Shown: piece after piece, positions 1,808 to 45,957 of the stretch
Layout: each line of letters begins with the position of its first letter
Numbering within the stretch: the stretch's first letter is position 1
NCBI GenBank assembly: GCA_038044925.1
Contig: JBBSZC010000006.1
Location: 1 to 57,985, forward strand
Length of the DNA stretch: 57,985 nt
Direction: 5' to 3'
From: Nanobdellota archaeon
Lineage (GTDB): Archaea; Nanobdellota; Nanobdellia; Pacearchaeales; GW2011-AR1
The notes under the pieces: model-generated
What the model was told of the DNA's origin: nothing
The model's input: the letters and a program-made list of their open reading frames with translations, nothing else
Database searches by the model: none
Position numbers and translations under genes: made by a program

Positions 1808-3010
1808 TTATTTATTATTTTTTCTCTTTTCAACTATGTTCTTAACTTTAAAAGAAGTTAGGAAAAAGAAGAACATAAAAAATGCAAAAATTAAGAAAAT
1901 GTACCTGAAGGGTAGGAAAATTAAAAGAGTTGCTGAGAGTATTCTTCCTGTAAAATGATTAGTTTCTATTGCAGTATTGTAAGGGGGGTAAAATCTGACT
2001 TCATCTTTTCCTTTAACAATATGAAAGAAATAAGCTTCTACTGTTGATTCTATCATTGATAATCCCACACTTGCAAGCACTAACAAACCCATAACAAAAA
2101 AGATATTATTTGTAAAAAAACAAGCTAGAGACAATACAGCCGGAATTAAAAAACCTATTTTGAATACTTTCTTAAACCCATGTTTGCCTGTATATTTTGA
2201 AGCAGAATATGTAAATAATATTAATGGGATAGAAACTGCAAAAAGGAAAAATCCTATCCATTTTTCATGCAAACCGCTTTTTATTATATATAATGGCATG
2301 AATAAATAAATTAATGTCCACCAGAAGCTTACACCTCCCCCAACTATATATGCGATTACTCTCTCTTTTTTTCTAAAGAAATCTATAAAATTTTTTATTG
2401 GATTTTCATCTGCCTTCTTTTTAATATTTATATCTTTTATATTTGAAATTTTAAACAAAAATAAAGAGCATAATATAAACACAGCAGCAATCAAGAATAT
2501 GCTGCTTATGCCTATTTCTTCTGAAATATAGCCGGCAATCAAGGGCCCTACAACCCAGGAAATATTCATAAAAGTGTAATTTAATCCTTCATTTCTAGAT
2601 AAGTATTTTTCGTTTGATTTATCCCTTATTATTATTCCAAAAGAAGTTATTCTAAATGTAAAAAGGATTGTCGTTATTAATGCAAGTAAAATAAAAATAT
2701 ATAGGTTTTTATTTATCGCAAATAAGACATAAGAAATTGCAAATAAAATCAAGCTAATTGCATATATTTTAGATTTGCTTATCCTTTCTATTACAGGTAT
2801 AATTGTGAAATATGAGATAAAAGAAACTAGAGTTAAAAATGCTGAAAAATAACCCACCAAAACTATGCTATTAAAAAAACTATTCATATAAACTGACCAT
2901 ATAGTGTCTACTATAGAAGACGCTAAAGAAGTTATGAGTGTAATAACCGCTAGTTTTCCTACGCCGGTTAAGTGCAGATATTCCCCTTTTTTTCTAAGCA
3001 AAACGCTCAT
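1808..3010 (-). CDS. MFS-type transporter
   Basis: 400 aa with about 12 hydrophobic segments and a basic central loop; typical major facilitator layout. Confidence 0.7.
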   Translation of the reverse strand: MSVLLRKKGEYLHLTGVGKLAVITLITSLASSIVDTIWSVYMNSFFNSIVLVGYFSAFLTLVSFISYFTIIPVIERISKSKIYAISLILFAISYVLFAINKNLYIFILLALITTILFTFRITSFGIIIRDKSNEKYLSRNEGLNYTFMNISWVVGPLIAGYISEEIGISSIFLIAAVFILCSLFLFKISNIKDINIKKKADENPIKNFIDFFRKKERVIAYIVGGGVSFWWTLIYLFMPLYIIKSGLHEKWIGFFLFAVSIPLILFTYSASKYTGKHGFKKVFKIGFLIPAVLSLACFFTNNIFFVMGLLVLASVGLSMIESTVEAYFFHIVKGKDEVRFYPPYNTAIETNHFTGRILSATLLIFLPFRYIFLIFAFFMFFFFLTSFKVKNIVEKRKNNK

Positions 3011-3124
3011 AATAGATATAGGTTAGATAAGTTTAAAAATCTTGTTTAACGAGTATTTTTATGACAGCTAAAATTTGTCGGCATTTTTTCAAATAAGCAA
3101 TATTTTTTTAGCTGTGCGAATTCT

Positions 3125-3141
3125 GGAAAGGCTTTTAAGTA
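3125..3141 (+). promoter_or_regulatory. Putative archaeal BRE/TATA promoter for tRNA-His
   Basis: ggaaaggcttttaagta lies about 30 nt upstream of the tRNA 5' end. Confidence 0.4.
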
Positions 3142-3169
3142 TTGTTTTTCTATATTAAATTATAAATAT

Positions 3170-3241
3170 GGCGATTGTAGTTTAACGGTAGAACGTGTGA
3201 CTGTGGCTCGCAAGACGAGGGTTCAACTCCCTCCTTTCGCC
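3170..3241 (+). tRNA. tRNA-His (GUG) with encoded G-1
   Basis: Hand fold: G-1, acceptor gcgattg/ctttcgc, D arm gttt-aacggta-gaac, anticodon arm tgtga-ctGTGgc-tcgca, T arm gaggg-ttcaact-ccctc, discriminator C. Two U-U mismatches in the acceptor stem lower confidence. Confidence 0.7.
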
Positions 3242-3272
3242 CTCAATAGTTTAAAAAAAAGAGATTAAGATT

Positions 3273-3677
3273 ATGAGAGTTTTATTTGTATGCAAACACA
3301 ATAGATTTAGAAGCAAAATAGCTGAAGCTGCTTTTAAAAAGATAAATAAGAATAAAAATCTTAAAGTTTCAAGTGCTGGTGTTTTTAAGGGATTTCCCAC
3401 AGAAAATATAGTAGTTAAAATAGGGAATAAATTTGGATTAAAAATACCAAAAAAAACTAAAGGATTAATAGAGAAAGAAATTTATAAGGTTGATTTACTA
3501 ATTATAACTGCAAATGATGTTCCTGCATCTTTATTTAAAAATAAAGTCAAAAAAATCATTGTTTGGAAAATTCCAGACACTAGTCAAAATAATATAAGGA
3601 AGATAGAAGAAATAATCAGAATAATAATTAAAAAGGTTGATAAATTGGTTTATCAATTAAATAGGAGGAGAAAATAA
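3273..3677 (+). CDS. Low-molecular-weight phosphotyrosine phosphatase / ArsC-family protein
   Basis: N-terminal VLFVCKHNRFRS gives the CX5R(S) P-loop; size is 134 aa. Confidence 0.75.
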   Translation: MRVLFVCKHNRFRSKIAEAAFKKINKNKNLKVSSAGVFKGFPTENIVVKIGNKFGLKIPKKTKGLIEKEIYKVDLLIITANDVPASLFKNKVKKIIVWKIPDTSQNNIRKIEEIIRIIIKKVDKLVYQLNRRRK

Positions 3678-3798: not shown

Positions 3799-4998
3799 AT
3801 GATAGAATTAGTAAAAGGATTTAGAGATGTTTTGCCTCCAGAATCATTGAAGAGGGCAAAAATCAGAGAAGTAATTGAAAAGAACTTTAAGTTATTTGGA
3901 TTTATCCCTATTGAGACTCCTAGCTTAGAGTATGAAAGTTTTGCTAAAGGAGATAATGAAAAAGATTCTGCTGTCTCTGATATGTTTAAACTAAAAGACA
4001 GAGGAAACAGAGAACTTGCATTGAGATATGAATTCACTTTCCAATTGCAGAGATTATTCAAAGAAAATCCCAATATAAAACTCCCTTTTAGAAGATACCA
4101 GATTGGATATGTTTTCAGAGACGAGCCAGTTGAAAAAGATAGATACAGAGAGTTTATCCAGTGTGATGCGGACATAATGGGGGATGCAAGCATAAATGCA
4201 GAGGCAGAGTTCCTGGCTTTGGCTGATAAAATATGCAAAGAATTAAAGATAAAATATGCTCTTAAAATAAATAATAGAAAGATTTTAGACGAGATATTTG
4301 AAAATTTAGAGATAATTGATAAAAATAATGTTTTGAGAGAGATAGACAAACTTGGAAAAATCGGAGAAGATGAGGTTAAGAAAAATCTGACAAAATATGC
4401 TGATAAAGAGCAGATTATTAAATTGTTTAAATTGCTTGGAGGAGATTTAAAGTTTTTTCTTGAACAGGAATATGCTGGAGCAAAAGAATTAGATGAACTT
4501 TTAAAATTATTAAAAATCTATAATATAAAAGCAGAGTTTTCTCCTTTTTTGGCGAGAGGATTTTCGTATTATACTGGAATTGTATTTGAAGCTTATTCAG
4601 AAGAAATAAAAGGCTCTATTTTTGCCGGAGGAAGATTTGATAATTTGGTTGGAAAATATATCAACAGGCAGGTTTCTGCTGTTGGAATTTCTTTAGGAAG
4701 AATTTTGGATTACCCTATAGAGAATCCTGAAAGTGCAAAATATCTTTTAATTTCAATAAATCAAGATAAGAAAACTGTTGAATTGATGAAAAACTTAAGA
4801 GAAAAAGGAATTTCTTGCTTGATGACAGATAAAATCAGCAGAGGTTTGGACTTTGCAAATAGCTATAATATTCCCTATGTTATTTTTGTTGGAGACGAAG
4901 AAGCAAGAAAGGGGAAGTTCAAATTGAAAAATATGAAATCAGGCAGAGAGAAGTTAGTTAGGGAGAAGGAATTAATAAAGTTAGAGAAAAATATATAA
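3799..4998 (+). CDS. hisS: Histidyl-tRNA synthetase
   Basis: GFRDVLPPE, RYEFTFQLQR and FRDEPVEKDRYREFIQCDADIMG are class II HisRS motifs. A ggagg lies 10 nt upstream. Confidence 0.9.
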   Translation: MIELVKGFRDVLPPESLKRAKIREVIEKNFKLFGFIPIETPSLEYESFAKGDNEKDSAVSDMFKLKDRGNRELALRYEFTFQLQRLFKENPNIKLPFRRYQIGYVFRDEPVEKDRYREFIQCDADIMGDASINAEAEFLALADKICKELKIKYALKINNRKILDEIFENLEIIDKNNVLREIDKLGKIGEDEVKKNLTKYADKEQIIKLFKLLGGDLKFFLEQEYAGAKELDELLKLLKIYNIKAEFSPFLARGFSYYTGIVFEAYSEEIKGSIFAGGRFDNLVGKYINRQVSAVGISLGRILDYPIENPESAKYLLISINQDKKTVELMKNLREKGISCLMTDKISRGLDFANSYNIPYVIFVGDEEARKGKFKLKNMKSGREKLVREKELIKLEKNI

Positions 4999-5020
4999 GT
5001 AATAATACCTTTGAAAAATT

Positions 5021-5293
5021 ATGAAAAAGAGGATGAGCTTTTGGGATATTCTTGCATGGATTGTTCTATTTTTGATATTAATATGGTTGATATTGAAAGG
5101 TTTTGGATTGATAAAAACTCCTATTTTAATTGAATACGCCCCTTATTTTGGAGCTGTATATTTAGTAGGATGGGCTATGCATAAACTTGACATTGCTGTT
5201 GAAGATATAAAAGATTTAAAGACCTTTAAAAAAGAGACTATAGATGAAATAAATAGCATAAAAATGAATTGTGTAAAAAATCATAAAAAATAG
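5021..5293 (+). CDS. Hypothetical small membrane protein
   Basis: Two hydrophobic helices followed by a charged tail; no recognisable family. Confidence 0.45.
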   Translation: MKKRMSFWDILAWIVLFLILIWLILKGFGLIKTPILIEYAPYFGAVYLVGWAMHKLDIAVEDIKDLKTFKKETIDEINSIKMNCVKNHKK

Positions 5294-5971
5294 CTATTCT
5301 ACTTTAATCTCCATTTTCCAGGAATGTTTTTCCCCTGAGATTTTAAAACCTTTAAGTTTTAATGGCTTTTTGAATAAAGGGCAATTTAATACAAATGTTT
5401 CAAACTCTCCACCCTCTCCTGCAGGATGGATGTTGTATTTTTCCTTTAGAACTTTTACATTTTCTATAAAAGTTTTGTCTATTTTTTTGCCCAGCCATTT
5501 TTCATCTAAAGGGTATGCAAAAACTCCTATGATAATTATATCAAATTTGTTTTTTATTAATTCTTCAAGATATTCTATTTCATTTCTATGCCATAAGGGA
5601 TTAAAGCATGCTAATTTTAATTCTTCGCAGATTTTTTGTATCCGCGATGCCTGATAAATAGAGTGCAGGGCTCCTGTAACAATCCCTTGGATTTTATATT
5701 TCTTTTTTGCTCTCTCTATCGCTTCTTTCAAGTCTTTGAGTTCTTCTTCTTTTTTTCCTTCAGTTTTATGAAACATTATTGGAATATCCATAACTCTGGC
5801 CTGTTTTTTTGTTTTTTCTATAGAGGGTGTGTGAAACATGTAAGATTCTGGATTTTTTGAGAGGATTGAGATTAAACAAGTTAATTCGTGTTTCTGCTTT
5901 TTAGCAAGATAAGCAGAATAAGTTGAATCTTTTCCGCCTGAAAATAAAACTCCGAGCTTCATTTTATTCAA
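5294..5971 (-). CDS. Dph6-like ATP-binding (PP-loop) protein, MJ0570 family (diphthine-ammonia ligase-like)
   Basis: LFSGGKDST PP-loop and the C-terminal GEGGEFETFV motif. Confidence 0.75.
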   Translation of the reverse strand: MNKMKLGVLFSGGKDSTYSAYLAKKQKHELTCLISILSKNPESYMFHTPSIEKTKKQARVMDIPIMFHKTEGKKEEELKDLKEAIERAKKKYKIQGIVTGALHSIYQASRIQKICEELKLACFNPLWHRNEIEYLEELIKNKFDIIIIGVFAYPLDEKWLGKKIDKTFIENVKVLKEKYNIHPAGEGGEFETFVLNCPLFKKPLKLKGFKISGEKHSWKMEIKVE

Positions 5972-6914
5972 ACATTTCTGCTAAAGGATTTTCAAAATCT
6001 TTGCTTAATTTTTTAATTCTTTTTTCTATTTCTTTACTGTCTTTTGAGTTTTCTTGATTCTCCTCAAATTCTTCTGCTCCTTCTAGTTCTTCCAATTCTC
6101 TTTCAATTTCATGCCTTAAGCCAGCGAATGGGTCTGGATTATTTTGAAAATAAACGTCTTTTAACCAGATATAAATTTCATGAAAATGAGCTTCTTGGTC
6201 AAGCCATATTTTTTTCTGACTTTCCAGCTGAAGGAGAGGAAGAAAGGAGATTATTTTTTCTTCTCGGTCTGTTCCTATTAAATCTGTATAAGAAACTTTT
6301 TGTTTTTTCTTTTCATCTAAATGAGTTGTTAATCTTAAGTATATTTCTTTTATTTTGTTTTTTATACTGAATTTTCCTTTAGGCATGGAAATTGCTGTTT
6401 CTCTTAAAGCATTTTGATTTATTATTTCTTTTTTTATTCTTCTGTTTTCTGTGGATATTGCCTGATTTAAGGAATCCATGAGTTCTTTTATAGTAACTTT
6501 CCTCATACGAGGAATAGGGCTTCTTGGTATTAATTCTGGGATTTCTTCATCTAGCTCTATTCTTTCTAAGATTCTTTTTGGATCAGGGGCTTTTTTTCCA
6601 AATAAAATCTCATCTATGCTTCTTATGTATTTATTCAATAAAATTTCTGATTTTAGTCTTAATAATAATGCTGCTGCAAGTAGGACTTTACTAGAAACAA
6701 AGAAATCTGCTTCTTCTAATTCCTGTATTTTCTTTAAATACCTGTCACTTAGAACTATGATATTAATATCCCATGGGTCTAATTGTTCTGTGTTGATTAA
6801 ATCATAAATTATTTCCTGCCAGCCTAGTTCTCTGCTGAAGAGCAAATCATGAATCTGCTCCTGTTTTACATTGTTTTTTGGTTTTCCCTCATTTTTTATA
6901 TTTTCATCTGTCAT
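5964..6914 (-). CDS. scpA: Segregation and condensation protein A (kleisin)
   Basis: LDPWDINIIVLSDRYLKKI..ADFFVSSKVLLAAALLLRLKSE is the typical ScpA N-terminal domain. Overlaps the downstream gene by 8 nt. Confidence 0.75.
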   Translation of the reverse strand: MTDENIKNEGKPKNNVKQEQIHDLLFSRELGWQEIIYDLINTEQLDPWDINIIVLSDRYLKKIQELEEADFFVSSKVLLAAALLLRLKSEILLNKYIRSIDEILFGKKAPDPKRILERIELDEEIPELIPRSPIPRMRKVTIKELMDSLNQAISTENRRIKKEIINQNALRETAISMPKGKFSIKNKIKEIYLRLTTHLDEKKKQKVSYTDLIGTDREEKIISFLPLLQLESQKKIWLDQEAHFHEIYIWLKDVYFQNNPDPFAGLRHEIERELEELEGAEEFEENQENSKDSKEIEKRIKKLSKDFENPLAEMFE

Positions 6915-7125
6915 GCATCTTTAAACGAATTGATGTTTATAAAATATTTTAAGTTATATATTTATAATTTAAATGTAGTTGGTAAATAAGGTTATATGTA
7001 GTGGGTAAAAAGATATATTTATATAATTGGGATTTAAAGTATACCTGTAACTTTATAGTTAAGAGTCAAGGATTTATTACTACTTTTAACTAAATATCTT
7101 ACGTCATTTTCGAAGAGTAACATAA

Positions 7126-7142
7126 ACGAAAGGTTTAAATAG
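7126..7142 (+). promoter_or_regulatory. Strong BRE/TATA-like element (acgaaaggtttaaatag) with no downstream ORF
   Basis: Near-consensus archaeal promoter. An imperfect 20-bp hairpin (7177-7229) ending in a T-run follows. Confidence 0.35.
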
Positions 7143-7448
7143 TTGAGGGTTCTATATATATTATCACCTCTTTTTACCCAGGAGAGGCTTCAGGTTAACT
7201 GTTTTTTTGACTTGAATCCTCCCCCAGGGTTTTATCATTAAAGAGAATATTTACAATAAGTAAAAAAGTCGTGGAATAAGCATTTATTTTTTAGTACTTG
7301 CTCCCACGCATTATATTTTTATAATTTTTAAATAAGCTAGTAATTTATCAGAAAATTATTTCTTGCTTTCAAATAGTTGTTTAGCGTAATTCGGGCTGGC
7401 TCGTAGATAGCTTCAACTAAACTTGAAATCATAAAAAGAATTATATAG

Positions 7449-16326: not shown

Positions 16327-16866
16327 ATGGATATATATAAACTAATATGGACACGATTGCAAAGCGAGATTTTTTCATTGCTTTGCTTAAGAGCGGGAGA
16401 AAAATTAAGCCAAAGAGAAATTGCAAAAATCCTTAATGTATCGCCAACTGCTGTGGCTAATTCTATAAAAAAACTAAAAGAAGATAATCTTATCAAAATT
16501 GAAAAAACAAAGACAATCAATTTTATTTCCCTTAATAGAGATGAGCAAAAAGCAATTGAATTAAAGAGGGCTGAAAACCTAAAAAATATCTATTTATCTG
16601 GATTGTCAGATTTTATCGAAAAAGAATTTGGAGGAGGAACTATAATTTTATTTGGAAGCTATTCAAATGGAAGTGATACTAATACATCAGATATAGACAT
16701 TGCCATAATAGGAAGAAAAGACAAGTTAATTGATTTAGAAAAATATGAAAAAATGTTAAACAGAAGGATAAATATAAACTTTTATAATTCGTTTAAAGCT
16801 ATACATAAATACCTAAAAAATAATATTTTAAATGGAATTTTAATCCATGGGGGTGTAGAATTATGA
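16327..16866 (+). CDS. wHTH-fused minimal nucleotidyltransferase (MNT-type antitoxin-like)
   Basis: N-terminal LSQREIAKILNVSPTAVANSIKKL HTH, then LFGSYSNGSDTNTSDIDIAI (GSx10-12DxD NTase motif). Confidence 0.75.
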   Translation: MDIYKLIWTRLQSEIFSLLCLRAGEKLSQREIAKILNVSPTAVANSIKKLKEDNLIKIEKTKTINFISLNRDEQKAIELKRAENLKNIYLSGLSDFIEKEFGGGTIILFGSYSNGSDTNTSDIDIAIIGRKDKLIDLEKYEKMLNRRININFYNSFKAIHKYLKNNILNGILIHGGVEL

Positions 16867-17315
16867 ATCTACTAAATAGTTTTGAATATTTTTTAGATAT
16901 GGGGATAGTAAGAAAAATAAGCAAAGATAAGTCAAGAGCTAGCTTCTTAGTAAAAGAATCCGGGAGTTCGTTAGAAGGATTAAAGGAGAGAATAAAGATT
17001 ATAGGTATAAATGATAAAAATGCAAATTCTATAATTAAAGATTGTTATGATATCATAATGGAGCTTATAAGAGCAAAACTTCTTTTGGACGGATATTATG
17101 CTTCTGGAAATTATGCCCATGAAGCAGAAATTTCTTATCTTAAAAAATTGAATTTTCTTGAAAAAGAAATTTTATTCTTAAACCAGTTAAGATCTTTTAG
17201 AAATTCAATTACTTATCGTGGAGAGATTTTTGACAAAGAATATGCTGAGAAAGTGTTTGACTTCTTAATTAAAATTATGCCTAAATTTAAAAACTTAAAA
17301 GATTTGAGTAGATAA
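16863..17315 (+). CDS. HEPN-domain protein (toxin-like partner of MNT)
   Basis: 4-nt overlap with the MNT gene, about 150 aa all-helical, with YAHEAE and LRSFRNSITY segments. The canonical Rx4-6H is not clear: Tyr sits where His is expected. Confidence 0.6.
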   Translation: MNLLNSFEYFLDMGIVRKISKDKSRASFLVKESGSSLEGLKERIKIIGINDKNANSIIKDCYDIIMELIRAKLLLDGYYASGNYAHEAEISYLKKLNFLEKEILFLNQLRSFRNSITYRGEIFDKEYAEKVFDFLIKIMPKFKNLKDLSR

Positions 17316-17880: not shown

Positions 17881-17986
17881 ATATGGGAAGACTAGGGGGT
17901 TAAAAAAACTTGATTATTCATGGGCCAAAAAAGCTGAAAAATCCAAATATAATAATATTTATAAAGAGAAGTGATTTAGACAAATT

Positions 17987-18145
17987 ATGGTAAAAATTTT
18001 AGAAGGTTCAATTGCTGAAATTCCATACATTGCGAAACAAAGAATTTCTGATGAAGAATTAAAATATGAACAAAGTTCAGCGGGATATTCTTGTGATTGC
18101 GATGGATTTGGGGGAGGAGATCCTCCTTGCGATTGCAATAAATAA
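17987..18145 (+). CDS. Candidate precursor peptide (52 aa) with C-terminal CDCDGFGGGDPPCDC core
   Basis: ATG ORF below the track cutoff: MVKILEGSIAEIPYIAKQRISDEELKYEQSSAGYSCDCDGFGGGDPPCDCNK. Lies directly upstream of the HExxH and radical-SAM-like genes. Confidence 0.45.
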   Translation: MVKILEGSIAEIPYIAKQRISDEELKYEQSSAGYSCDCDGFGGGDPPCDCNK

Positions 18146-18179
18146 AATATAATTCTAAGAGTTTTAACGATTTATTAAA

Positions 18180-18860
18180 ATGGAATTTCCAAAAGTAAAT
18201 TTTAAATTTAATAAAGAAGAAGATTTAAGAAATATCTGGGAAACTTGTAACAACACTTCTTCTTGGTATGATTATAAAAAAACAATTCATTCTTCATTCC
18301 TAGAAATTTGTCAAGGAAAAAATTTTGAAGAATGTAGAGATTTACTAGAAAAGCGTAGAATCAAAATGTATGATTCTGGAATAATAGAAATTTTCACAGA
18401 ATCTATTCAAAAAGCCTGGAATATCATAAATAACGAATTTTTTGCGAGATTAGAAAAACTTATGAAAAATAAAATTTATACAAAAGAATTTACTGCTTAT
18501 ATAACAACAGTTCTTAGATGCCCATATAATCTTGAAGAGTCCTGGTTTATGGTTTCTTTTTTTAGAGATATTTCTAATGCATTAAAAACAGCAGGGCATG
18601 AATTAATGCATTTGCAATTTCATAACACTTATTGGCCAAAAATAGAAATGAAAATAGGAGAAGAAAAAACAGCTGATTTAAAAGAAGCTCTCACAATATT
18701 ACTAAATTTGGAATTTAAGGATTTGTGGTTTGTAGAAGATCAAGGATATGAAAAACACACAGAATTAAGAAATTTTATAAAAGAACAATGGGAAAAAGAA
18801 AAAGATTTTGATATTTTAATGGAGAGGTGTGTTGAATTTCTCCAAAAAAATGATAATTAA
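18180..18860 (+). CDS. HExxH-motif protein (putative metallopeptidase or modifying enzyme)
   Basis: TAGHELMHLQFH is the only recognisable motif; no family assigned. Confidence 0.55.
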   Translation: MEFPKVNFKFNKEEDLRNIWETCNNTSSWYDYKKTIHSSFLEICQGKNFEECRDLLEKRRIKMYDSGIIEIFTESIQKAWNIINNEFFARLEKLMKNKIYTKEFTAYITTVLRCPYNLEESWFMVSFFRDISNALKTAGHELMHLQFHNTYWPKIEMKIGEEKTADLKEALTILLNLEFKDLWFVEDQGYEKHTELRNFIKEQWEKEKDFDILMERCVEFLQKNDN

Positions 18861-19461
18861 ACCATATTTTGTACAATTAGAATTAACTGAAGATTGCCCT
18901 GGAAGGTGCATACATTGTTATAATTCTTATTCGCAAAACAGAGGTTCTTCTTCTGCAGGAATAGAAGTTGTTAATGCAATTGCTGAATGTGATTTTTTTA
19001 ATATTACTATAACTGGAGGAGAACCATTAACTAAAAAACAAGAATTATTTTCTGCAATAAAAAGATTTAAACAAGAACAAATGGATGTGTCTATTAATAC
19101 TAACCTTTATTTGCTTGAAAAAGACGATGCACAAAGAATTAAAGGATTAGAAACAGATTATATTTTAACATCTGTTCTTGGACCTAATGAAAAAATTATT
19201 CAAGAAGATTTTAATCCTAGGGATTGTAAGATTGCTGAAGGAAAAATAAAATATAGAGAAGAAAGAAATTTTAAAACAGTTTATATAAATCCTGATAAAA
19301 ATGCTACTTTAACAAAGCTGGAATTTGTAATCTTACAAAGAATTTTAGCAGGACAAAATTATAATCAAATCTCAGATGAACTAAAAAATATAGAACTTGT
19401 CAAGAAAACCTTCAAAAAACTATTTCAGAGAAAAATTTTAATAAAAAATAATAAAAAATAA
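18850..19461 (+). CDS. Chimeric protein: radical-SAM N-terminal segment plus LuxR/GerE-type HTH
   Basis: LELTEDCPGRCIHCYN (Cx3Cx2C) and ITITGGEPL, then LTKLEFVILQRILAGQNYNQISDELKNIELVKKTFKKLFQRKIL (GerE-like). Too short for a full radical SAM barrel, and no SPASM cysteines. ATG 18850 is preferred over GTG 18829. Confidence 0.55.
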   Translation: MIIKPYFVQLELTEDCPGRCIHCYNSYSQNRGSSSAGIEVVNAIAECDFFNITITGGEPLTKKQELFSAIKRFKQEQMDVSINTNLYLLEKDDAQRIKGLETDYILTSVLGPNEKIIQEDFNPRDCKIAEGKIKYREERNFKTVYINPDKNATLTKLEFVILQRILAGQNYNQISDELKNIELVKKTFKKLFQRKILIKNNKK

Positions 19462-19483: not shown

Positions 19484-19792
19484 TTAAAACCTTCTTCTAT
19501 TATCATCTCTGTCGCCAAAACTTCTTCTATGGAAGTCTCTTTTCGGTCTTTCTTCCATTGGTCTGGCTTCAGAAACTTTAAGTTCTCTTCCTGCAACGTC
19601 TTTTCCATTAAGCTCTGAAATTACTTTTTTAGCAATTTCTTCGTCTTCAATGGTTACAAATCCAAATCCCTTGGATCTTCCTGAAAACTTGTCTTTGATA
19701 AGAGTAATATCCTGTGCATTGAATCCTGAAAAAAGCTCTTTGAAAGCTTCTTCATCAATACTAAAAGGCAAATTACCTATATGTAGCTTCAT
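19484..19792 (-). CDS. RRM-type RNA-binding protein (bacterial/eukaryal type) with RG-rich tail
   Basis: KLHIGNLPF (RNP2) and KGFGFVTI (RNP1). A ggagg lies upstream of ATG 19792. The track N-terminal extension is rejected. Confidence 0.85.
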   Translation of the reverse strand: MKLHIGNLPFSIDEEAFKELFSGFNAQDITLIKDKFSGRSKGFGFVTIEDEEIAKKVISELNGKDVAGRELKVSEARPMEERPKRDFHRRSFGDRDDNRRRF

Positions 19793-19895
19793 TTTATCCT
19801 CCTTACATTTACTTGAGCATAAAATTAGAATTGACTCTAACACTGCAATTATATTTAACTAACATATAATTTCTTAATTAATAGGGTATTTAAAT

Positions 19896-45814: not shown

Positions 45815-45957
45815 GGCTTCGTAGCTCAGCCTGGTTAGAGCACTAGCCTTTTAATTCGTATGAGGAACCTAGGTTCCTCCTAACAAGTCACCACCTCCTC
45901 TAAGAGAAGGTGATAAAGGACAGCTAGGTGTCGGGGGTTCAAATCCCCTCGAGGCCA
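45815..45957 (+). tRNA. tRNA-Lys (UUU) with a ~68-nt intron at the canonical 37/38 position
   Basis: Acceptor ggcttcg/cgaggcc, D arm gctc-agcctggtta-gagc, anticodon stem ctagc(45843-47)/gctag(45923-27), loop ctTTTa, T arm ggggg-ttcaaat-cccct. The intron (~45854-45921) holds the perfect palindrome gaggaacctaggttcctc. Confidence 0.85.

Follow-up and report, generated by a model that had tools for sequence, protein, structure and literature searches.

A putative radical SAM peptide-modification cluster conserved in DPANN archaea, with an internally deleted maturase in a Nanobdellota genome

We analysed a 57,985-nt stretch of DNA (the window; contig JBBSZC010000006.1 of assembly GCA_038044925.1) from a Nanobdellota archaeon of the order Pacearchaeales, focusing on three tightly packed forward-strand genes that resemble a cluster for a peptide made by ribosomes and modified after translation (RiPP). 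A 52-aa open reading frame (ORF) for a Cys-rich peptide (17987–18145) is followed, 34 nt downstream, by the gene for a 226-aa protein with an HExxH motif (18180–18860), which is overlapped by 11 nt by a 203-aa ORF (18850–19461, from an ATG; an alternative GTG start at 18829 would give 210 aa) that opens like a radical S-adenosylmethionine (rSAM) enzyme. The original prediction, made from the sequence alone, had described these three ORFs, the HELMH motif of the 226-aa protein and the 11-nt overlap, and ORF calling and inspection of the sequence confirm each of them. Its broader reading, that a peptide, HExxH and rSAM trio follows the grammar of RiPP loci, is borne out by related DPANN genomes, in which both the small ORF and the trio are conserved. 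No component of the three falls into a curated family.

Scanning of one genome per species yielded 80 loci encoding the HExxH family, in DPANN archaea at 40–66% and in the candidate phyla radiation (CPR)/Patescibacteria at 28–45% identity for the HExxH protein; ORFs were called in these loci and then searched by phmmer and hmmsearch. The commonest neighbour of the HExxH gene by far was an rSAM gene (39 of 80 loci), followed by methyltransferase (10) and RtcB (7) genes. In 30 of the 56 archaeal-type loci, the HExxH gene has an rSAM/SPASM gene no more than 3 kb away, mostly directly adjacent, and nearly all rSAM-linked loci also hold a small ORF for a product with an MV(K/E)TL start and a Cys/Asp-rich core at its end. 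Cys/acid-rich small ORFs, with a background density of 0.02 per kb, occur within 300 nt in 20 of these 30 rSAM-linked loci but in none of the 26 without an rSAM gene within 3 kb. Gene order varies: in type A (L001, L008, L010, L016, L019, L020, L022–25, L027, L035, L041, L050, L168 and others) the peptide gene is followed by a gene for an rSAM protein of ~347 aa and then by the HExxH gene, with overlapping stop and start codons; in type B1, the layout shared by the window, L007 has its peptide gene at 1475–1648, followed by the HExxH gene at 1678–2340 and a full-length 420-aa rSAM gene at 2342–3604; in type B2 (L017, L044, L169–171) the HExxH gene and a 421–441-aa rSAM gene stand opposite a divergent peptide gene and an APH/EcKL-type kinase gene; and L003 and L166 represent further divergent or convergent forms. 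Two features stay the same across at least four rSAM subfamilies: the HExxH protein and a leader that starts with MVxTL. We conclude that the trio is a real, conserved gene neighbourhood of predicted RiPP type in DPANN archaea. A scan of metagenome contigs with the rSAM alignment was uninformative: generic rSAM patterns dominated, the best identity was 36%, and only L094 had an HExxH homologue among the matches listed.

The 52-aa peptide (MVKILEGSIAEIPYIAKQRISDEELKYEQSSAGYSCDCDGFGGGDPPCDCNK), whose C-terminal end reads ...YSCDCDGFGGGDPPCDCNK, divides into a leader beginning MVKILEGSIAEIP... and a core, SCDCDGFGGGDPPCDCNK, with four Cys and five Asp. Its gene is matched by the peptide of L007 (E = 1.5e-10, tblastn against the window), which ends in ...MCDCDSFGGGDAPCDCNR and has a core near-identical to that of the window peptide; the closest core among the relatives is CDCDSFGGGDAPCDCNR vs CDCDGFGGGDPPCDCNK in the window peptide. 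Homologous peptides were found in L007, L001, L008, L016, L019, L023–25, L035, L037, L041, L050 and L168, with the MV(K/E)TL leader start in common and with Cys/Asp-rich cores. The peptide matched no Pfam or NCBIfam family, and those of the relatives matched no NCBIfam model, SCIFF included. A TATA-box-like element (atatTTATAAAg; 17955–17966, forward strand), read from the sequence, lies about 22–30 nt upstream of the peptide ATG, and an element of this kind (TTTATAAA, TTTAAATA or CTTAAAAA) occurs 22–30 nt upstream of the ATG in 16 of the 16 peptide genes compared. At the level of the motif, it is a putative archaeal promoter that would yield a leaderless or near-leaderless transcript. Since homologues occupy the same position in relatives, Cys/acid-rich ORFs are enriched beside the rSAM genes and a TATA-like element lies upstream, the unannotated ORF that the original prediction had proposed as the peptide gene is a genuine, conserved gene, far above chance, for a predicted precursor peptide.

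The 203-aa protein aligns at both ends with rSAM/SPASM maturases of 418–445 aa, and about 220 central residues are gone. Its match to the 420-aa enzyme of L007 (phmmer, E = 8e-49) resolves in BLASTP into two collinear segment pairs, residues 1–116 against L007 1–116 at 49% identity and residues 109–198 against L007 335–420 at 37% identity (E = 2e-15). The N-terminal remnant (residues 1 to ~122; 18850–19215) retains the CxxxCxxC loop (C16/C20/C23), the GGEPL motif (G56-G57-E58-P59-L60) and strands beta1–beta4 of the barrel, and the rSAM-like opening noted in the original prediction is recognized by PF04055 (Radical_SAM) over residues 18–131 (E = 6e-13, 49.6 bits vs a cut-off of 29.5). This match covers profile positions 2–122 of 166 only, short of the complete partial-TIM-barrel core of at least beta1–beta6, and the near-invariant family columns 180–210 (LNMVV..N...T...G..F.AT) fall in a gap of the window protein. 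In our alignments (A2, and A3 with 38 family members), the junction zone (19195–19245) corresponds to gap runs at A3 columns 153–324 and 332–398, about 172 and about 67 columns long, which flank a 7-aa island, DFNPRDC, aligned with the IPxEC, invariant in the family, with which the second SPASM cluster motif begins. The near-invariant Cys and Gly columns 258–344 of the family all lie within these gaps. Of seven SPASM cysteines only C126, at the position of the IPxEC Cys, is left, those at columns 258, 278, 296, 334, 340 and 344 having been deleted, and PF13186 (SPASM) is unmatched in the 203-aa protein, as the original prediction of a protein with neither SPASM domain nor complete barrel had implied; the same model is found in L007 (25.2 bits), L017 (28.9 bits) and L044 (cut-off 21.5).

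The short form stands apart in its family. A family profile search recovered hundreds of members of 390–479 aa, and among the best 120 only the window protein is short; an exhaustive HMMER scan of 1.84 billion representative proteins returned no other composite of the same N- and C-terminal parts. Queried with the 203-aa protein, a word-index homologue search recovered nothing beyond the query, and the family was reached through loci of neighbouring genes and then by profile. Several possible sources of the short form were examined and rejected. A gene in two parts, or another copy of it in the window, is contradicted by tblastn searches with the missing middle segments, the type A rSAM protein and the peptides, in which no missing middle segment, second rSAM/SPASM gene or peptide paralogue appeared elsewhere in the 58 kb. 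An assembly artefact is countered by two independent assemblies, a metagenome-assembled genome contig (L004) and a single-sample ENA contig (L005), and because these are 100% identical over the cluster, we treat the short form as a real allele. A frameshifted pseudogene running on downstream does not fit an ORF whose C-terminal domain is in frame and which ends 22 nt before a convergent RRM gene. The viperin family (pVip) was also rejected: NF038283 scores 41.1 bits for the window protein and 57.9 for L007 against a cut-off of 180, the PADLOC matches cover the generic rSAM core only, and the relatives have SPASM domains and an adjacent precursor peptide. On alignment, then, the 203-aa protein derives by internal deletion from an rSAM/SPASM maturase and is, as we read it, a broken enzyme; because beta5–beta6 and the auxiliary clusters are gone, it would almost certainly be unable to perform radical cross-linking.

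The C-terminal domain that survives the deletion (residues ~128–203; 19231–19461) aligns to L007 residues 335–420 and is constant in full-length members of the rSAM/SPASM family. The original prediction had seen here a switch to a foreign domain, giving an rSAM/helix-turn-helix (HTH) chimera, a view that does not survive the finding that the domain is native to the 418–445-aa enzymes. Pfam searches of 26 members gave scattered weak winged-helix matches (MarR, HTH_24 and others), the domain profile gave weak winged-helix matches among PDB sequences (such as cullin WH-B and Lrs14), and the PqqD-like PF05402 had no sequence match in the 26 members scanned. An AlphaFold2 (AF2) model of the domain (predicted local distance difference test (pLDDT) 86) has three strands (8–11, 15–21, 24–29) followed by three helices (30–40, 45–52, 55–67), the beta-beta-beta-alpha-alpha-alpha order of the PqqD-like RiPP recognition element (RRE). 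The whole-domain Foldseek matches are RREs: TbiB1 (5v1u; template modelling (TM) score 0.57–0.68), lasso B1 (6jx3; TM 0.72), CteB (5wgg; TM 0.62, rmsd 2.3 Å), ThcOx, McbB and LynD/TruD. They align over 66–83 columns, compared with 42–50 for LuxR-type effector domains (DosR, RcsB, DesR, EsrB), with E-values that are poor throughout (E ≥ 0.35), as expected for a 77-residue query. Because of this topology and the coherence of the fold matches, we assign the domain as an RRE with a predicted role in leader binding, an assignment that is well supported although not proven. A separate metagenomic protein of 84 aa (P0330) matches this domain only (query residues 122–201, E = 1e-10); it is an RRE that stands alone or else a fragment from the end of a contig.

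The 226-aa protein carries HELMH at H140–H144 and belongs to no Pfam or NCBIfam family; an NCBIfam scan at E ≤ 1 gave only an irrelevant HMG-CoA lyase match and left the mod_HExxH model TIGR04267 (the FxsB rSAM partner) unmatched. Searching for homologues brought up more than 230 proteins, 217–238 aa long and 48–68% identical, every one annotated 'hypothetical' and, where named, from Pacearchaeota, Nanoarchaeota and Woesearchaeota. In the family alignment, which has a mean column identity of 65%, H140, E141, H144, H148, D166, E169, C114 and Y116 are invariant. The AF2 model (pLDDT 96) consists of strands followed by the HExxH helix (131–150) and a second helix (152–170) that bears E169 (...DLKEALT...), and its top 40 Foldseek matches in the PDB are all M4/M1 gluzincins, including LasB, vibriolysin, LTA4 hydrolase, aminopeptidase N (APN), ERAP and the lanthipeptide peptidase EryP. 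Because the HExxH motif is invariant, E169 lies on the following helix and the fold matches are consistently gluzincins, we propose that this is a minimal, novel, single-domain gluzincin-like zincin and a putative metallopeptidase. It is probably a leader peptidase or a leader-recognising partner, and recognition of the MVxTL leader is suggested because that leader start and the HExxH protein are the features held constant across rSAM subfamilies. Distant homologues occur in Patescibacteria, Saccharibacteria and Paceibacterota (L063–L085, 28–45% identity), nearly always without an adjacent rSAM or peptide gene, and by homology the family is common to ultra-small archaea and ultra-small bacteria. 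In one metagenomic protein (P0074, 394 aa) the HExxH protein is fused to a SAM-dependent methyltransferase (TehB/Methyltransf_25); methyltransferase genes also sometimes sit between the rSAM and HExxH genes (L026, L028 and L166 carry them).

The interpretation that we favour, and consider somewhat probable, is that the locus is a copy of a conserved DPANN-archaeal RiPP cluster, made up of the peptide, a small, cytoplasmic HExxH protein and an rSAM/SPASM enzyme with a C-terminal RRE, in which the maturase has been inactivated by deletion. In intact relatives, the RRE would bind the MVxTL leader, the rSAM core and two auxiliary SPASM clusters would cross-link the core cysteines, most plausibly into Cys-S-to-Asp/Asn side-chain thioethers of the ranthipeptide type, and the HExxH zincin would trim the leader and so release the core. 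In this genome, one or more in-frame internal deletions of about 220 codons have taken out beta5–beta6 of the barrel and six of the seven SPASM cysteines, leaving a 203-aa 'Fe-S loop half-barrel plus RRE' in a cluster that would be a decaying or re-purposed copy. The original prediction had offered a decayed enzyme or a sensor-regulator for this protein: decay, by internal deletion, agrees with our findings, while a sensor-regulator does not agree with a fold that is RRE-like rather than LuxR-like. The window copy of the protein is in effect the non-functional fragment that the prediction had named as a ground for doubt, while the peptide and HExxH genes beside it are intact.

Several findings weigh against this interpretation and call for caution. 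Every fold match of the HExxH protein is statistically weak (E 0.086–1, TM about 0.3), and the family profile found no match among PDB sequences. No curated rSAM family cut-off is reached, the best match being NirJ2/GeoRSP at about 88 bits vs 400–500, and the PapB model NF047865 gives L007 65.5 bits vs 340; because no curated maturase model comes near its cut-off, we do not claim membership of the PapB type, and the thioether chemistry suggested for this family is drawn from the make-up of its cores, in which Cys is joined by Asp/Asn and which are most like the substrates of PapB-type maturases. The HExxH gene lacks a nearby rSAM or peptide gene in 26 of 56 archaeal loci and in nearly all CPR loci, and the protein may act independently of the peptide. 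The remnant still has CxxxCxxC, GGEPL and an unbroken frame, and the retained parts have diverged no more than the HExxH distance predicts: in a relative-rate test, the N-terminal ratio was 0.76–0.87 for the remnant vs 0.81–0.90 in intact pairs at similar distance. All this would fit a very recent deletion as well as selection that still acts on the remnant, and the lack of acceleration cannot date the deletion.

Continued selection would be expected if the 203-aa protein were functional, its RRE domain still holding the leader and, as an adaptor or chaperone, handing the peptide over to the HExxH peptidase in the way that the lasso B1 RRE serves the B2 protease, with an Fe-S loop that is inert or redox-sensitive and a product that is an unmodified, leader-trimmed, Cys/Asp-rich and perhaps metal-binding peptide. 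We consider such an adaptor unlikely. The intact motifs, the unaccelerated N- and C-terminal parts, the frame kept across apparently two separate deletions, the intact peptide and HExxH genes with a core conserved relative to L007, the leader-bound lasso B1 RREs as best fold matches and the existence of P0330 all speak for it. However, the short form is unique among the 1.84 billion representatives, which leaves evolutionary persistence unsupported; a frame is kept by chance in about one of three deletions, and the 7-aa island, from which two events are deduced, may be an artefact of the alignment; a recent deletion explains the lack of divergence equally well; and P0330 may be a contig-end fragment. 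A still different function, that of a sensor-regulator in which an Fe-S N-terminus is joined to a DNA-binding LuxR/GerE HTH that controls transcription, is scarcely credible. It draws on a weak GerE match (PF00196, E = 0.024 in the whole protein and 0.004 in the isolated domain) and on DosR, RcsB, DesR and EsrB among the Foldseek matches over the helical part, but the GerE match scores 14.7 bits against the Pfam cut-off of 23.5, covers profile positions 2–28 of 57 and is confined to the window protein, 1 of 26 family members. The GerE/LuxR assignment of the original prediction is therefore not upheld: the domain is constant at the C-terminus of full-length rSAM/SPASM enzymes, its strands as well as its helices match RREs over the longer alignments given above, and the architecture arises from deletion, not fusion.

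A rival account of another kind takes the HExxH protein out of the peptide pathway altogether, as a conserved independent or housekeeping protein of DPANN and CPR, beside which rSAM–peptide modules happen to lie or were inserted, and leaves peptide and rSAM as the functional unit. The HExxH genes without rSAM or peptide genes nearby (the 26 archaeal loci, and 22 of 24 distant, CPR-type loci), a mean column identity more like that of a core gene than of a RiPP accessory, and the adjacency to RtcB/archease (7 loci) and methyltransferase genes (10 loci, in addition to the P0074 fusion) are consistent with it. We nevertheless regard it as quite doubtful, in that at least four rSAM subfamilies co-localise with the HExxH gene (347 aa; 420–445 aa with a C-terminal RRE; 363 aa; 442 aa with an N-terminal RRE), upstream, downstream or divergent and often with overlapping start and stop codons, that the MV(K/E)TL leader start recurs in the peptides of every arrangement and so tracks one shared protein, and that no other neighbour has a comparable frequency. 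At the opposite end lies a combined proposal, that the module of MVxTL peptide, HExxH protein and rSAM/SPASM enzyme is a distinct, DPANN-wide RiPP class that reaches into CPR with the HExxH protein as its hub, and that the 203-aa protein is in addition a selected RRE adaptor; we hold the conjunction improbable. If it were true, the HExxH protein would be a universal leader-recognising hub serving several unrelated rSAM subfamilies, and what the organism makes would be a Cys/Asp peptide trimmed of its leader but not cross-linked, such as a factor for metal binding or for interaction with a host.

Among characterised systems, the ranthipeptides PapA/PapB (freyrasin) and the SCIFF pair CteA/CteB are among the closest to the cluster of the intact relatives, with a short precursor that has a leader and a Cys-rich, Asp/Asn-rich core and with enzymes that combine rSAM, a seven-Cys SPASM domain and an RRE, predicted in the relatives; the CteB RRE resembles the C-terminal domain at the TM score given above. 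PapB forms Cys–Asp thioethers in freyrasin (PMC8326336, PMC9413430, PMC10739248). In contrast to the N-terminal RRE of ranthipeptide enzymes, the RRE of the DPANN family is C-terminal, L007 falls far below the PapB model cut-off and the DPANN peptides match no SCIFF family; the HExxH zincin partner and the DPANN hosts are further differences, and the window enzyme in particular lacks SPASM and has a half barrel. Sactipeptide maturases (AlbA, StsB, RumMC) share the rSAM/SPASM plus RRE architecture and Cys-donor peptides, and L007 weakly matches the AlbA (E = 3e-20; 72 vs 850 bits) and StsB (E = 2e-18; 66 vs 625 bits) models, but their domain order differs and the DPANN cores lack the sactipeptide hairpin pattern, in which the Cys donors lie N-terminal and the acceptors C-terminal.

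Three other systems are alike in single parts. The lasso B1 RREs TbiB1 (5v1u) and 6jx3, both leader-bound structures, are the best whole-domain matches of the C-terminal domain, and the remnant and the HExxH protein could follow the same logic, in which an RRE passes the leader on to a peptidase; the likeness is at the level of the domain only, since the cluster has no lasso cyclase or B2 transglutaminase-type protease and its candidate peptidase is a zincin. The HExxH family shares with TIGR04267/FxsB and the gluzincins (M4 thermolysin/LasB, M1 APN/EryP) the HExxH motif and a downstream Glu (E169) on the next helix, and with TIGR04267/FxsB also the genomic pairing with rSAM/SPASM, but it matches neither their models nor any PDB sequence, is only 226 aa long and has fold E-values that are not significant. 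Proteusin epimerases of the PoyD/OspD type are rSAM RiPP enzymes for which a C-terminal RRE has been reported (PMC8326336), as is predicted for the DPANN family, but they have no SPASM auxiliary clusters and act on long nitrile-hydratase-like leaders, and no specific sequence similarity to them was detected in the DPANN enzymes.

Some relatives carry additional genes around the module. The type B2 precursor genes (L017 1282–1500, L044 1072–1359, L169 1590–1769, L170 1570–1773 and L171 1599–1790), all on the reverse strand and divergent from the HExxH–rSAM pair, encode cores with CYS repeats such as GCYSTGCYSPSSCIDCYSVD, and the kinase gene behind them hints at an additional phosphorylation step. 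In L003, a second, different RiPP-like cluster (4666–7351, reverse strand), convergent with the HExxH gene, holds genes for a 60-aa peptide ending in SARSCRCYPCKC, for a 442-aa rSAM/SPASM protein whose N-terminus carries a PqqD-like RRE and for a 261-aa protein in which an AEEILH motif occurs, as well as a Cys-containing ORF of 75 aa. RtcB and archease genes adjoin the HExxH gene in several relatives (L002/L003 1230–3999, L168 2993–5416, L001 1–564), with an ORF resembling a LAGLIDADG homing endonuclease just upstream of RtcB in L002/L003. The RtcB/archease, kinase and methyltransferase partners of the relatives are absent from the window.

In the window itself, the pair just upstream of the cluster (16327–17315, forward strand), a gene for a winged-HTH plus nucleotidyltransferase (NTP_transf_2/Polbeta) protein and, sharing 4 nt with it, a 150-aa ORF that Pfam does not match, looks like an MNT/HEPN-type toxin–antitoxin system, and a similar HTH–nucleotidyltransferase ORF is present in five related loci. 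Downstream, 22 nt from the truncated rSAM gene and convergent with it, lies a gene for a small RRM_1 protein (19484–19843, reverse strand; E = 4e-18) whose tail is rich in Arg, Asp and Gly; genes for RRM proteins are untypical of archaea. A 143-nt Rfam tRNA match (45815–45957, forward strand; 53 bits), not reported by ARAGORN, is probably an intron-containing archaeal tRNA.

We know of no rSAM-type RiPP cluster that has been characterised in DPANN archaea, and among the papers searched there was no prior description of the trio there, in agreement with that part of the original prediction which called such loci essentially undescribed in this group. The claim needs one qualification, in that rSAM-type RiPP clusters in DPANN have been counted by automated mining (PMC12144867). 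What is new lies at the level of the family: a predicted RiPP cluster, ranthipeptide-like and uncharacterised, whose rSAM/SPASM enzyme has its RRE at the C-terminus and a new putative zincin as partner.

The feature that makes the window look exceptional is a deletion remnant, and it is the conserved family that merits experimental follow-up. The family offers a testable set of precursors and enzymes, with L007 as the intact twin of the window locus, together with an unusual rSAM–SPASM architecture in which the RRE is C-terminal and a new, minimal family of putative zincins that is the apparent constant partner of several rSAM subfamilies. The window copy is a natural experiment in its own right, in which peptide and putative peptidase have been retained and the presumed cross-linker lost. 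Since the genomes of DPANN archaea are tiny and the organisms rely on hosts, a module for peptide maturation that dozens of lineages among Pacearchaeota, Woesearchaeota and Nanoarchaeota have retained is likely to matter to them, whether in host interaction, competition or metal handling.

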